A DNA stretch of 64,000 bases from a virus (IMGVR_UViG_3300020160_001428:1-64000), one strand, 5' to 3'; positions 60,190-64,000 are shown, counted from the stretch's first letter. Notes: generated by a model not told the origin, from the sequence alone. Made by a program: numbers and translations.

Positions 60190-60600
60190 TTATCTCCTTA
60201 AATAGTCTTGTATAACGGCGTTGACTGCATTATCATCATTATAATCAGTTAACATTTGAAGTTGATTTATTACAGAAGAATATTCATTTTTATTCTTCTC
60301 AATTTCTTTAATATTATCTTTTAATGTAAGATATTTTTCAAGATTGTTAATTAAATTCTCATCGCCTGTTTCAATAATTTTAATATAACACTCTTCTTTG
60401 TTACTATCAGTAATGATAATTCCTTTACTGATAAATTCATTGTTTAATAACATAAAAGAAACAAAGTCAACTAATGTAAACGATAATAAATTATCTCCCA
60501 TAATACCGCGTACTTTGGTTTTGACTGCTTTCGCGGCTTTACCTGCATAGGTACTAGCATCAATTCCTTCTACTTCTTCATAATTAGTGATTTCTTTCAT
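60190..60600 (-). CDS. Hypothetical protein
   Basis: 136 aa ORF overlapping the upstream gene. Confidence 0.55.
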   Translation of the reverse strand: MKEITNYEEVEGIDASTYAGKAAKAVKTKVRGIMGDNLLSFTLVDFVSFMLLNNEFISKGIIITDSNKEECYIKIIETGDENLINNLEKYLTLKDNIKEIEKNKNEYSSVINQLQMLTDYNDDNAVNAVIQDYLRR

Positions 60601-60850
60601 TTTTTAACCTTTCAATTTCGTCAGATAATTCTTGTACTGCTTTGATCAATGGAAAAATTAACTGATGCGGATTAGCTACAATAAAGTATCCGTCTCGATC
60701 TTTTTCTAAAATAGTGTATTTTTCTATTGGCCAAATTTCATTTATATTCTGTGCCATACAGCTCATAGTTTTTCTTACTGTATCACCTTTAGTGTTGTCA
60801 GTATATATATGCTCTGCAGGTCTTAGCTGTTTTATTTTCTCTAAACTCAT
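60584..60850 (-). CDS. Stand-alone peptidase S74/intramolecular chaperone-like fragment
   Basis: SLEKIKQLRP...MAQNINEIWP...LIFPLIKAVQELSDEIERLK; TAATG overlap with the upstream stop. Confidence 0.7.
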   Translation of the reverse strand: MSLEKIKQLRPAEHIYTDNTKGDTVRKTMSCMAQNINEIWPIEKYTILEKDRDGYFIVANPHQLIFPLIKAVQELSDEIERLKNERNH

Positions 60851-61494
60851 TACATATACTCAATTTCAGTTTTAACTTGTTCATCGCTATAGTTGCAATT
60901 ACAGGTACATGAGTAATTGCAGTTACAGGTGCAGTAGTTGCAGTTACATGTGCAATAGTTGCAGTTACAGGTGCAGGCGATCCTAGAGTCATTAATTTGA
61001 TTTACTAAGGAATTTATATGAACAGCTCTAATCTTTGATCCAACTAATGCGGCAAATGATGTTGCATTGCTAACTGCGGGCACCTGTGGATAGGTTATAG
61101 TTTCCGGTTGTGGGACTGGACCATATACTGGTATCTGGTTGCCAGTCGGGTTTCCGTAAGGATCAAGTTCTGGAGTATAGCCAACTACTACTTGCCCGTT
61201 AGGACTATTGATATTCTGGTTAGCTCCATTTTGTGCTGTTGTTGCCGCTGGTCCTGCAACGCTTACAGCAGTAATAATAGTGTCTAGGCGGGCCGCTGAA
61301 ACTGTTCCCGAGTAATAGCCGGCAGGTATAACGATATTAGATTGGCCTCTTCGAACTCTTTCATTGATTGCAGCCTGAAAAATGCCAGCCATGGCTGAGC
61401 CACTAATAGTAGTGCTAGTTCCAACGTAGCCGCCGATGTACCCTAGAGCATTTGATGCGTTGGTTCCGTAAACGTTTGCAACTAAACTTGCCAT
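60850..61494 (-). CDS. Cys-repeat protein 3, (CTCNCNY)x4 plus SD..K stub
   Basis: Ends ...CTCNCNYSDEQVKTEIEYM. Confidence 0.8.
   Translation of the reverse strand: MASLVANVYGTNASNALGYIGGYVGTSTTISGSAMAGIFQAAINERVRRGQSNIVIPAGYYSGTVSAARLDTIITAVSVAGPAATTAQNGANQNINSPNGQVVVGYTPELDPYGNPTGNQIPVYGPVPQPETITYPQVPAVSNATSFAALVGSKIRAVHINSLVNQINDSRIACTCNCNYCTCNCNYCTCNCNYSCTCNCNYSDEQVKTEIEYM
60889..60975 (-). repeat. 21-bp coding tandem repeat (CTCNCNY x4)
   Basis: Four units of roughly TGC ACC TGT AAC TGC AAC TAC, with one extra codon before the last unit. Confidence 0.9.
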
Positions 61495-61500
61495 TTATAA

Positions 61501-62334
61501 CTACTCCACCTCAAAATTAATTGGTAATTTTGAGTAGTTAACAAAATAGTATCCGTCTAGGTCTTTACCTAGAGCACATTCGTATTTGGTGCCTTGTAGT
61601 TCTTGAGCCATTACTCCACGATAGCGAGTCGATTTATCTTTGATATAGTTCCAAGAATAAACATTTAAATTATTTTCAACTTTAATAAATTTGATATTTT
61701 CTTTTAATCTTATATCACTACCATAATTACAATTACAGGTACATGCATAATTGCAGTTACAGGTGCAGTAGTTGCAATTACAGGTGCAGTAGTTGCAATT
61801 ACAGGTGCATACAGCGCCGGCAGAATTAATAGCACTAATTAGTGTATTAATATCTACAGAACTTATCCGTTGGTCTTTACTGAACGATGTTCCAACTGAC
61901 GGCGCCGGTGATTGTGGATAGGTTATTACTTCTGGAGTAGGTACTGCGGCGTATGTTGGGGTTGAACCAACTACATTTCCGTAACCGTCAAGGATCGGAG
62001 TTGAACCTGTTTGTACTACTCCGTTAGAACTATTGATATTCTGATTAGCTCCGTTATATGCTTGACTGGCCGCTGGGCCGGCCTGCTGAACTGTTGTAAT
62101 AATCTCTTGAACCCTAGCCCCTAATATTTTTCCACTAAAATAACTTGCCGGAAGTTGAATTGCTGAGCCGCCGCGGCGACTTCTTTCTGCAATGGCTTTA
62201 TTTGCTATATCAACTAATTTGTTTTCTCGCATTACGTCAGTAGATAACACGCCGGCCAGGTTATGAGTTACGGCATTAGTGGCATTAGTTCCGTATATAC
62301 TTTTAGTCAGTCCCGAAAAAGTTGGTAATGCCAT
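61501..62334 (-). CDS. Cys-repeat protein 2 with complete S74-type chaperone domain
   Basis: (CTCNCNY)x4 then GSDIRLKENI...YSWNY...GVMAQEL...GYYFVNYSKL. Confidence 0.85.
   Translation of the reverse strand: MALPTFSGLTKSIYGTNATNAVTHNLAGVLSTDVMRENKLVDIANKAIAERSRRGGSAIQLPASYFSGKILGARVQEIITTVQQAGPAASQAYNGANQNINSSNGVVQTGSTPILDGYGNVVGSTPTYAAVPTPEVITYPQSPAPSVGTSFSKDQRISSVDINTLISAINSAGAVCTCNCNYCTCNCNYCTCNCNYACTCNCNYGSDIRLKENIKFIKVENNLNVYSWNYIKDKSTRYRGVMAQELQGTKYECALGKDLDGYYFVNYSKLPINFEVE
61723..61809 (-). repeat. 21-bp coding tandem repeat (CTCNCNY x4)
   Basis: Same unit as at 60889-60975. Confidence 0.9.
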
Positions 62335-62907
62335 TTACATGTACTCCACTTGACTTTTAAGTTGTTCATCGCTATAGTTGCAGTTACAGGTACATGAGTA
62401 ATTGCAGTTACAGGTGCAGTAGTTGCAATTACAGGTGCAGTAGTTGCAGTTACAGGTACATACAGCACCAGCAGTATTAATTTCTGTAATTAGTGCATTG
62501 ACAATAGCACTAGTTATTCTTTGGCCGGCTATAAAGTTTCCTGAGCCGCTAGGAACTGCTACTTGACCGTAAGTAGTTATTGCTGGAGGATTGCCACTAT
62601 TAGCGCCACCTCCATAATTGGTATTGTATGCTTGACTAGTTGCGGGTCCTGCAATTTCTACATTAGTTTTAATTTCTTGAATTTTGCTTGCAAATAATCT
62701 ACCAGTATAATAATTAGAAGGAATAGCAATTGCCGAACCACCGCGACGTGTTCTTTCTGAAATAGCTTTTTGTGCTATATTGTAAAATATTCCGCCAGAC
62801 ATCTTATTTGTGTTATTGACTTGTGTAAGTCCATGAGATACTGAATCGCTGGCGTCAGTACCGTAGATGTCTTTTACTAATCCCGATGTTATATTTGGTA
62901 ACGCCAT
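62335..62907 (-). CDS. Cys-repeat protein 1, (CTCNCNY)x4 plus SD..K stub
   Basis: Ends ...CTCNCNYSDEQLKSQVEYM; SD GGAG upstream. Confidence 0.8.
   Translation of the reverse strand: MALPNITSGLVKDIYGTDASDSVSHGLTQVNNTNKMSGGIFYNIAQKAISERTRRGGSAIAIPSNYYTGRLFASKIQEIKTNVEIAGPATSQAYNTNYGGGANSGNPPAITTYGQVAVPSGSGNFIAGQRITSAIVNALITEINTAGAVCTCNCNYCTCNCNYCTCNCNYSCTCNCNYSDEQLKSQVEYM
62374..62460 (-). repeat. 21-bp coding tandem repeat (CTCNCNY x4)
   Basis: Same unit as at 60889-60975. Confidence 0.9.
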
Positions 62908-62919
62908 CGCTCCGTCTCC

Positions 62920-63318
62920 TTAAATTGCTTTTGATAAAAAGTCTAAATCTTCTTTAGCTTTATTCTGTGCTAGAAATTTGTCATAGTCGTCAAGATCAGC
63001 AGTTGATGTAATAAAATCTAGTGTGTTCTTATCAACCTCCTTGTCTGGCATTTCTTGATTTTCATTCATATCTTTGATAATCTGCATGACTAAATCAGTT
63101 AACGATATACCTAAAATAGAAGTGACCATTTCTATTTGTTTAGAAATATCAACAGTTTCAACTGGTTCAGTTCTTTCAGACATTTCTTTGATAATGTTCA
63201 TAGATAGAATAAATCCATCTAGCATAATTGTAGAAACTCCTGGTTCATCTTCAACTTCCATAAGGTTGATAATCTCTAGGATTTTTTCTAATTTTTCGTT
63301 TATTGTCATCTGAGTCAT
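62920..63318 (-). CDS. Hypothetical acidic protein
   Basis: 132 aa ORF between the radical SAM gene and the Cys-repeat genes. Confidence 0.55.
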   Translation of the reverse strand: MTQMTINEKLEKILEIINLMEVEDEPGVSTIMLDGFILSMNIIKEMSERTEPVETVDISKQIEMVTSILGISLTDLVMQIIKDMNENQEMPDKEVDKNTLDFITSTADLDDYDKFLAQNKAKEDLDFLSKAI

Positions 63319-64000
63319 TTTATTTCTTTGTCCTTAAAATCATGAAATTTTGGAGAGTTTTCGTAGTTACCGTAGGTCGTTACATTACCCTCGTTAGTAA
63401 AATATGTCTTCAATTCTTTGCGTTCACCACAACCATTGCACATGTCGCAAAACAATTCGCATACAGGTACAGATACTGCTTTATTTATCCAGTCATTTCT
63501 AAGCTGATTTTTAATCTCGGTTAGCTTTTCGATGTCCTTTGGGGTTAGTGTATCCCAGGCCACACTAGTGATCATGCGCTCTGGATTAAAAGTTTTTATC
63601 AATTTGGTCATGTCTTTATACACATGGTTGATATTAAACTTATGTATGGTATAACGCATACGATATCTAAACTTGTTTTTTACTAGATTAGTAAAGACTT
63701 CAATCATACTTCTAGTACTGTCCATACCATTATGATATACCCGATCCTTGTTGCCAATTCCGTCAAAGCTAACATCTATTGATAACAGTCCCTTTTTATA
63801 AAAGAAGTTGTTCATTGTTTCATCAATAAAGTTTTGACTTAGGTATTTGATACCGTTGGTTGTCATGTTAAAATGTACATTACGTTTCTTACTAAAGGCA
63901 TAGTCCATAGCAAAGCAGACGTTCTCCCATTCTAGCGTAGGTTCGCCGCCAAACAATACAATTAGTGTTTGGCTTTTAGGATCTTCTCTAGCAAGTATTG
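63315..64000 (-). CDS. Radical SAM protein of anSME/peptide-maturase type; 5' end off the window
   Basis: Frame open to the window end (ILAREDPKSQTLIVLFGGEPTL); TTNG, VSFDG; C-terminal CELFCDMCNGC. The CxxxCxxC motif is not visible. Confidence 0.75.
   Translation of the reverse strand, partial: ILAREDPKSQTLIVLFGGEPTLEWENVCFAMDYAFSKKRNVHFNMTTNGIKYLSQNFIDETMNNFFYKKGLLSIDVSFDGIGNKDRVYHNGMDSTRSMIEVFTNLVKNKFRYRMRYTIHKFNINHVYKDMTKLIKTFNPERMITSVAWDTLTPKDIEKLTEIKNQLRNDWINKAVSVPVCELFCDMCNGCGERKELKTYFTNEGNVTTYGNYENSPKFHDFKDKEIK

Follow-up and report, generated by a model that had tools for sequence, protein, structure and literature searches.

Why should a virus carry, within one operon, three tandem genes bearing the same cysteine-rich cassette together with a series of radical S-adenosylmethionine (radical SAM) enzymes? 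The question is raised by IMGVR_UViG_3300020160_001428, a viral record of 72.4 kb (CheckV completeness estimate 21%), the first 64 kb of which (positions 1-64,000, called the window below) were analysed here. Toward the end of the window lie genes for proteins of 190, 277 and 214 amino acids (aa), each with four copies of the heptad CTCNCNY, and upstream of them, partly past the window's end, three radical SAM genes that we call rS368, rS374 and rS290 (the trio). An earlier note on this DNA, made from the sequence alone, had seen here a candidate system for maturing phage fibre proteins in the manner of peptides that are made by ribosomes and modified after translation (RiPPs). Having followed it up computationally, we hold it to be somewhat better than an even bet that the trio staples the cassette by thioethers, that cleavage by a Peptidase_S74 (S74) chaperone leaves the cassette as the C-terminus, and that the product is trimeric and probably a virion protein, a reading built on the comparison of sequences.

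The three proteins are adjacent paralogues, 48-55% identical overall and identical in the cassette itself, CTCNCNY-CTCNCNY-CTCNCNY-[S/A]-CTCNCNY, which packs 12 Cys into 29 residues; N-terminal of it, none of the three has a single Cys. Directly behind the cassette stands SDEQLK, GSDIRLK or SDEQVK, of the general form SDxx[LV]K, and in front of it an N-terminal domain (N-domain) whose motifs YGT[ND]A, ER.RRG and AGPA and helix I....[IV]N.L[IV] are common to all three paralogues in the alignment and whose middle varies even among them. Three tandem genes with diverged N-domains, these same motifs, an identical 12-Cys cassette placed directly before SDxx[LV]K and an N-terminal part free of Cys had all been described in the earlier note, and the alignment bears out each of these features in all three proteins. 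At the DNA level, the cassettes of the three paralogues differ at 5-8 of 87 nt, versus 35-52 of 87 nt in the adjoining upstream 87 nt. A DNA-level repeat or gene-conversion artefact was considered and ruled out, as the peptide stays the same although its synonymous sites are scrambled: the identical 29-residue cassette occurs in 13 distinct nucleotide sequences, and between these a mean of 13.6 of the 29 third codon positions differ. It is the peptide, and not the DNA, that is under purifying selection.

The same constraint is seen across the 165 distinct cassette proteins from which the family statistics are taken. Heptad positions 1, 3 and 5 are Cys in 100%, position 2 is T in 87% and position 6 is N in 96%; position 4 is N (79%) or D (16%), one or the other in 95%, and position 7 is aromatic in ~99% (Y 93%, F 4%, H 2%, W 0.2%). 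Four heptads are present in 135 of the 165 proteins and 3 to 28 in the remainder. An ERxRR-type motif lies ~115 residues upstream of the cassette in 152 of them, versus 2.7% of shuffled N-terminal parts; it is to be counted as a motif of the family and not as recurring independently. When 5.8 billion proteins were searched with the 214-aa protein, 638 matches were returned at E<=0.001, none informatively named, and the heptad array is present in all 120 of the 638 that were listed. The family is almost wholly viral: IMG/VR holds 37 cassette loci, and a prokaryote collection in which 185,579 species are represented by one genome each yielded only three confirmed ones, all on contigs of metagenome-assembled genomes. 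From Campylobacter phages to large freshwater phages, the cassette is invariant. Because it stays unchanged across unrelated phages while the N-domain middle varies among paralogues, this argues that the cassette would be a constant chemical or structural module under constraint from its enzymes, not a receptor-binding tip.

The databases of named families and named phages add little to this picture. PHROG 26958, of unknown function, matches the cassette of the 190-aa protein (5e-13); that protein has no Pfam or NCBIfam match, and none of the cassette proteins matches an NCBIfam target family at E<=1. Megablast of window positions 52000-64000 gave no match in the collection searched, and in named phages, tblastn with the 277-aa and 214-aa proteins as queries met S74 tails only (4 records) or nothing, the low-complexity filter probably masking the cassette. 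In the ESM Atlas, residues 1-148 of the 190-aa protein fall among unnamed, mostly viral clusters only. One ESM Atlas lead for the 190-aa protein (score 0.80) is a cluster with PF27846 (radical SAM target, Cxxx repeat) in 19% of its members, an unconfirmed candidate.

The genes stand on the same strand in the order rS368, rS374, a 97-aa open reading frame (ORF), rS290, a 132-aa ORF and the three cassette genes, the neighbours directly upstream overlapping or standing apart by just 1-4 nt. The genes are tightly packed overall (overlapping by 1-17 nt or spaced by 0-12 nt), and a promoter and terminator scan of 56000-64000 showed no excess over shuffles (41 vs 34.5+/-6.6 and 4 vs 3.8+/-1.9, respectively). 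Because of this tight packing, and because terminator-like sites are no commoner than in shuffles, co-transcription of the three cassette genes with rS368, rS374 and rS290 is the best explanation. The earlier note had counted one radical SAM gene two genes upstream and five downstream; all of these are present, and the count was incomplete, as two more radical SAM/SPASM genes (rS368 and rS374) lie past the end of the window.

Linkage of cassette and enzymes was counted over the 26 distinct groups into which the 37 IMG/VR loci fall, taking trio-type radical SAM genes on the same strand and within 10 kb of the cassette. Such genes accompany 23 of the 26, and all three types are found in 17. Among the misses, L009/L010 ends 0.9 kb downstream (in its close relative L043, the trio lies 3-8 kb downstream) and L013 has its cassette gene at the contig start. 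L043 and L045, both from the prokaryote genome collection, have trio genes. In the reverse direction, a single-query search with rS374 led to a cassette gene in 12 of 12 loci. An rS374 profile run on 2.9 million viral contigs had at least 280 relatives, the best 80 of which gave 79 loci for evaluation, duplicates not merged; a cassette was present in 20 of the 24 loci at >=36% identity, and the canonical heptad in 0 of 55 at <=33%. The misses at >=36% are L061, with an internal deletion; L072 and L088, at contig ends; and L079 (CPt10), whose cassette gene lies ~32 kb away. The trio runs 368-374-290 or 374-290-368 depending on the lineage and lies downstream in L043, with the linkage kept throughout. 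The strength of the linkage argument is in these divergent lineages and rearranged orders, and the co-occurrence that the earlier note proposed to test by a database search of the repeat is seen in both directions. It is the three upstream radical SAM genes, not the five downstream, that evolution has conserved as partners. A further companion is the 136-aa protein of Table 1, homologues of which immediately follow the cassette gene(s) at 19 of the 26 distinct loci, distant ones included.

Two side observations belong to these searches. In L061 (12666-13097), within a syntenic operon, 72 N-terminal codons of the cassette gene run into a stop and an intact S74 domain follows at once; the 76.8-kb record contains no second cassette copy, and the deletion is a knockout that arose naturally or else an artefact of assembly in which the repeat collapsed. 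Several distant rS374 relatives (22-32% identity) adjoin other Cys repeats, such as a CTCNVD-type array in L081 (12430-12897) and CxCxC-type arrays near distant radical SAM genes in L085 (~9867), L101 (~6439), L112 (~9786) and L129 (~9739); CTCNVD hexads, CxCxCDx, CECECE and CGCECPEE are all represented, and one array lies inside a 2079-aa ORF. Since these distant viral radical SAM/SPASM relatives adjoin other periodic Cys repeats, this suggests a wider viral superfamily of Cys-repeat and radical SAM pairs.

What kind of enzymes are these? All three contain CxxxCxxC and match PF04055 at 47-51 bits (cut-off 29.5). The full seven-Cys SPASM pattern is found in rS374 (C250, G263-x4-C268, C300-x2-C303-x5-C309-x3-C313, C329) and is invariant in 14 homologues; rS368 matches the SPASM model TIGR04085 at 30.7 bits (cut-off 27), and rS290 has a shorter four-Cys C-terminal cluster motif only, its SPASM feature being partial. 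The top NCBIfam match of each is the PapB ranthipeptide maturase (1.1e-37, 1.7e-24 and 9.5e-18), followed by the SCIFF, QhpD, nif11 and CcpM maturases. The best PDB match of all three is 5wgg, which we take to be CteB; because the alignments start at chain residue 100-101, the phage enzymes begin at the radical SAM core and lack the CteB N-terminal region of ~100 residues. These matches support the view that the nearest characterised relatives of the trio are Cys-thioether-forming peptide maturases, PapB and CteB foremost, and agree with the earlier note, which cited Cys-thioether cross-linking by enzymes of the radical SAM/SPASM class.

According to the available text of PMC12373016, PapB cross-links Cys to acidic residues C-terminal to the donor. 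The acceptor residues of PapB and CteB (Asp/Glu and Thr) resemble N/D and T of the heptad, and the exchange of N and D at positions 4 and 6 fits the acceptor residues of ranthipeptides, which supports thioether chemistry. The trio might instead modify the cassette by another route, such as an anSME-like conversion of Cys to formylglycine, a cyclophane at position 7, epimerisation, or a mixture with a different reaction for each enzyme; this is a variant of the stapling reading and in our judgement decidedly unlikely. Position 7 is limited to Y, F, H and W, the residue set of cyclophane-forming radical SAM/SPASM enzymes; the NCBIfam lists include the YhhB/AmcB cyclophane maturases, DynA/DarW and anaerobic sulfatase maturase (E 1e-8 to 1e-16); and three distinct conserved enzymes suggest more than one reaction. 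Yet the top relatives of all three, and their best PDB match, are thioether formers, and the simplest explanation of three absolutely invariant Cys per heptad is that the reaction takes place at Cys.

The second half of the reading concerns S74. The 277-aa protein matches PF13884 (Peptidase_S74) at 31.7 bits (cut-off 22, E 1.9e-7) and, in BFVD, ICA domains at E 1e-5 with a root-mean-square deviation of 1.7 over 71 columns. The Ser and the Lys five residues later (SDIRLK, SDEQLK and SDEQVK in the three window proteins) begin the domain, and S206, D207 and K211 are conserved in >=90% of 69 sequences. The 190-aa and 214-aa proteins end 12 residues into the domain, at SDEQ[LV]K...EYM. Among the 165 family members, 102 end in such a 12-residue stub, 33 in a full S74 domain and 15 at the last heptad. 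That the cassette is the mature C-terminus, as the earlier note proposed, is supported by the S74 match above the Pfam cut-off, the conservation of S206, D207 and K211 and the 15 relatives that stop at the last heptad.

For the 214-aa protein, the remainder of the domain seems to be supplied by a separate gene, an 88-aa ORF that covers S74 profile positions 16-54 (16.8 bits, E 0.0085, under the Pfam cut-off), matches PHROG tail-fibre C-termini (8.9e-5) and aligns with residues 224-265 of the 277-aa paralogue (E 0.003). No tail ORF follows the 190-aa gene, which has the same stub; free tail ORFs are seen at 8 of 13 distinct stub-bearing loci. With the domain complete in the 277-aa protein, stubs in the other two and the rest of the profile on the 88-aa ORF, this single window appears to display the S74 follower in three states: fused, as a stub and as a separate gene. 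A programmed -1 frameshift joining the 214-aa gene and the 88-aa ORF is conceivable, but a slippery heptamer is absent at TATATGTAATG, and the frameshift is also countered by the 190-aa stub without a tail ORF and by the free tail ORFs at the other stub loci. The split form, in which the protein keeps a 12-residue stub and the 88-aa piece is free, is a candidate case of an intramolecular chaperone acting in trans.

Structure prediction with AlphaFold2 (AF2) gave, for the 277-aa protein and a 69-row alignment, a mean predicted local distance difference test (pLDDT) score of 80.6, with the N-domain and S74 confident and the cassette at 33-36; this predicted disorder between two confident parts was counted in favour of the cassette as the substrate of the trio. 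Foldseek of the monomer against the PDB gave nothing at E<=0.001, the top rows being 3gw6 and 4uw8 at E ~1, and a wide VIA-align search with it reached Z 5.4 at most, no better than noise for the N-domain, which has no convincing fold relative. The trimer prediction with three copies of the 277-aa protein had scores of 0.00 and 0.00 and returned no answer.

From these elements we infer that rS368, rS374 and rS290 modify the unstructured C-terminal (C-T-C-N-C-N-Y)x4 cassette of phage-encoded, RiPP-like substrates, most likely by joining Cys sulfur to a carbon of neighbouring Asn/Asp (or Thr/Tyr), as in PapB, CteB and QhpD. In the order of steps that we propose, S74 would trimerise the protein and then self-cleave before the Ser of SDxxxK, so that the cassette becomes the mature C-terminus; this would take place in cis for the 277-aa protein, and for the 190-aa and 214-aa proteins with an S74 rebuilt from the 12-residue stub and the 88-aa piece in trans. 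The product would be a short homotrimer, probably a virion appendage, whose constant end may be a covalently stapled module resisting reduction and proteases and whose variable middle may provide a specificity that differs among the paralogues. By our own reasoning, thioether staples would work in the reducing cytoplasm of phage assembly and disulfides would not. A more specific form, in which each of the three radical SAM/SPASM enzymes closes one Cys link per heptad to build a ladder of thioether rings that S74 exposes on a trimeric virion appendage, we offer tentatively, as something that may well prove wrong. If true, a viral particle protein would for the first time be seen to undergo RiPP-type maturation, and a new class of leader-independent substrate with a seven-residue code would be defined.

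A number of results weigh against stapling by the trio. Its NCBIfam scores lie far under the equivalog cut-offs: on NF047865, the PapB equivalog, the enzymes reach 130, 86.7 and 64.5 bits against a cut-off of 340, which makes them relatives and not members, and because of this distance the chemistry is not confidently transferable to them. In the 5wgg alignments, the RiPP recognition element (RRE) or PqqD-like leader-recognition domain is absent from the trio, and the small partner ORFs are without a family match; the 136-aa partner is predicted to be all-helical (AF2 pLDDT 87.9, five helices), with no Foldseek match in the PDB and nothing in the ESM Atlas, so that neither the family comparisons nor the fold of the 136-aa protein revealed an RRE-like partner. 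Related phages account for many of the linked loci, so that the counts overstate the number of independent events, and in the Campylobacter phages the linkage is loose, one radical SAM gene lying 2-4 kb away and the others scattered. L032 is a true miss, a heptad array with no radical SAM gene within 10 kb, and L044, in the genome collection, has a heptad array and none in the 14.5 kb covered. The CxCxC spacing resembles metallothionein-type sites, and such patterns are typical of metal-thiolate sites.

The arrays without nearby radical SAM genes and the CxCxC spacing also favour a different explanation, that the cassette stays unmodified and forms, with S74 as nucleator, a triple beta-helix lined with Cys or a stack of metal thiolates (Zn, Fe or Cu), much as T4-type fibres and spikes have metal sites coordinated by His, and that the radical SAM enzymes serve another pathway (sugar, cofactor or nucleic acid). 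The S74 match is genuine, and S74 chaperones fold triple beta-helices directly upstream of the cleavage site; the window also holds a large operon of sugar-nucleotide and radical SAM genes, whose enzymes need not target proteins. We regard this explanation as unlikely: it fails on the two-way tracking of SPASM enzymes and cassette through rearrangements, loci without sugar genes included, and the 29-residue cassette has no similar PDB sequence at E<=10 and no confident AF2 fold.

Several known systems come close to what is proposed here. In PapB/PapA (freyrasin) and in CteB/CteA (SCIFF, 5wgg), a radical SAM/SPASM enzyme likewise stands beside a Cys-rich repeat substrate. The phage system differs from the ranthipeptides in its substrate, which is no short leader-core peptide but a protein of 190-277 aa whose N-domain is folded and whose follower is a self-cleaving S74, and in having three enzymes instead of one, no protease or exporter, and a viral context. 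A secreted antimicrobial RiPP was ruled out, as the conserved core contains no N-terminal cleavage site, protease or exporter. QhpD/QhpC is alike in its radical SAM/SPASM enzyme, its several thioethers from Cys to Asp/Glu and a product that stays in a larger assembly, and TIGR03906 (QhpD) matches all three trio enzymes at 1e-13 to 1e-20; QhpC, a subunit of a bacterial periplasmic enzyme, differs in having no sequence similarity to the substrate, no repeat array and no S74. The CXXX-repeat (TIGR04115), Cys-every-fifth (CefB) and CcpM systems follow the same logic of a periodic Cys repeat beside a radical SAM/SPASM maturase, and match the trio at 1e-8 to 1e-20; the heptad differs in its periodicity, with Cys at three of every seven residues and with N and Y fixed, and in its viral distribution. 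On the S74 side, the 277-aa protein has the same domain and Ser...Lys site as the S74/ICA domains of the K1F endosialidase and the T5 L-shaped fibre pb1 (3gw6, 4uw8), whereas most of the cassette family (102 of 165) has just the stub, with the rest of the domain on a separate small gene, or else the domain is missing altogether, and the segment to be folded is an array of Cys heptads and no known triple beta-helix sequence. By its sequence features, the system would belong with radical SAM/SPASM maturation of Cys-rich repeats, set apart by a folded substrate, a self-cleaving and often split S74, three RRE-less enzymes and an almost entirely viral distribution. If the trio does staple the cassette, radical SAM/RiPP chemistry would reach beyond small secreted peptides into the assembly of virus particles, and a compact, leader-independent and repeat-coded set of substrate and enzymes for multiply cross-linked peptides would be at hand.

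The heptad is present in cultured phages as well. A 534-aa protein at L019/L020 is 90-100% identical to "hypothetical proteins" in 15 Campylobacter Firehammervirus records (CP220, CPt10, CP21, IBB_35 and F379 included). These proteins (CP220 CPT_0180 / gp140, CPt10_1891, IBB_35 AEF56812) have the same heptad, C[TL]C[DN]CNY, in 6-7 copies, and belong to T4-like phages with 11-12 radical SAM genes; unlike the window proteins, they are 534 aa long, with an internal array, no S74, another N-terminal domain and a looser radical SAM linkage. The CP220 cassette gene stands among genes for tail sheath, tail tube, gp63-like RnlA and baseplate, with a radical SAM gene 2.2 kb downstream. This gene context and the S74 domain are the basis on which we infer that the cassette proteins are probably located in the virion, as fibres or otherwise. 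CPt10 has, ~7 kb downstream of its rS374-like gene, a 69-aa ORF (L079 17838-18047) whose final stretch repeats Cys at intervals of three residues (C-x-N-C-x-N...); its product looks like a separate small radical SAM-target-like peptide.

In the available text of Timms et al. (2010; PMC2853527), the 11-12 radical SAM proteins of CP220/CPt10-type phages are termed "highly unusual" and ascribed to host metabolism, and a 21-bp repeat in CPT_0180 / CPt10_1891 is mentioned purely at the DNA level. If the trio staples the cassette, this would account for the up to a dozen radical SAM genes in some phages. The IBB_35 virion comprises 38 proteins by mass spectrometry (Carvalho et al., 2012; PMC3322345); the main text of that paper does not mention the cassette homologue (inferred gene 3-9), and the list of 38 proteins is in its supplementary tables. 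The earlier note did not recognise the heptad from any described family. This stands as regards function, no paper describing the heptad or its radical SAM link having been found in the full-text literature searched, the coverage of which leaves out most subscription journals; it does not stand as regards the sequence, which was already on record in PHROG 26958, in the cultured Campylobacter phages and, within the available text of the 2010 paper, as the 21-bp repeat.

Table 1. Coordinates of the cassette genes, the radical SAM trio and neighbouring features (window positions unless marked as record positions)
Feature	Coordinates	Strand	Remarks
Cassette protein 1, 190 aa	62335..62907	-	N-domain, (CTCNCNY)x4 at 62374-62460, 12-aa S74 stub SDEQLKSQVEYM
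Cassette protein 2, 277 aa	61501..62334	-	N-domain, (CTCNCNY)x4 at 61723-61809, complete Peptidase_S74 at residues 206-277
Cassette protein 3, 214 aa	60850..61494	-	N-domain, (CTCNCNY)x4 at 60889-60975, S74 stub SDEQVKTEIEYM
Radical SAM maturase rS290	record 63315-64187	-	last 227 codons at window 63315-63998, cut by the window end
Radical SAM/SPASM rS374	record 64477-65601	-	beyond the window
Radical SAM/SPASM rS368	record 65603-66709	-	beyond the window
88-aa ORF, putative remainder of S74 domain	60584..60850	-	TAATG overlap with the stop of the 214-aa gene
97-aa ORF	record 64184-64477	-	beyond the window, between rS374 and rS290
132-aa acidic small protein	62920..63318	-	between rS290 and the cassette genes
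136-aa conserved partner, all-helical (predicted)	60190..60600	-	PHROG 25260, unknown function
Downstream block, five more radical SAM genes (Pfam)	50511..57485	-	56496-57485, 54915-55856, 54019-54927, 53280-54029, 50511-51596
GT2 glycosyltransferase	55837-56505	-	inside the downstream radical SAM block, alongside unknown ORFs

The remaining genes of the neighbourhood are less closely tied to the cassette. The 132-aa acidic protein is kept in the close lineage only and has no family match. The downstream radical SAM block has a looser association: its synteny holds in the close lineage and in part in L034 and L035, and most of the distant cassette loci lack it. With it, eight radical SAM enzymes lie within 20 kb, each requiring 1-3 [4Fe-4S] clusters, and it can be asked whether the cassette proteins, with 12 Cys in 29 residues, serve the enzymes instead of being served by them, as an Fe-S or iron/sulfide reservoir or an electron carrier. 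We consider this very improbable, since it leaves unexplained the self-cleaving S74 trimerisation domain, the paralogues with variable middles and the tail-gene context in CP220, and since the proteins have no similarity to Fe-S scaffold families in Pfam or NCBIfam.

Between the cassette genes and the downstream block sit two paralogous ORFs, 59135-60187 (350 aa) and 58332-59129 (265 aa), which start with MLxILSG.ETI.K and have a common I..RNPS motif; neither has a Pfam, PHROG or NCBIfam match, and their RNP motif may be sulfotransferase-like. A sugar-nucleotide block (42904-50514) includes a polysaccharide deacetylase, a sulfotransferase, a PIG-L deacetylase, a CMP-sugar-type cytidylyltransferase, two epimerase/dehydratases and a transketolase that a Trp-halogenase-like gene splits in two, and may glycosylate a virion protein or DNA. 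Just upstream of the trio are a short UDP-glucose/GDP-mannose dehydrogenase-like gene (record 66709-67452; L042 4710-5453, minus strand) and a class I/II aminotransferase-fold gene (record 67541-68731; L042 5542-6732, plus strand).

As a whole, the window encodes DnaK, both ribonucleotide reductase subunits, a PAAR/baseplate-hub-like protein, virion structural proteins and the sugar-nucleotide block. Near-identical DNA is found in freshwater metagenomes of a single study; four DNA sequencing runs, one of them possibly the source, contain at least half of the window's sequence words, and no RNA run is listed among the runs sharing them. The DnaK (Hsp70) is full-length (8723-10594) and ~70% identical to DnaK in records labelled Pseudomonas, Acinetobacter and Salmonella, which phages do not usually carry and which may hint at the host. 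The PAAR/baseplate-hub-like product is a 326-aa protein (18106-19086) with a PAAR-motif match and a C-terminal match to baseplate-hub/tail-lysozyme proteins.

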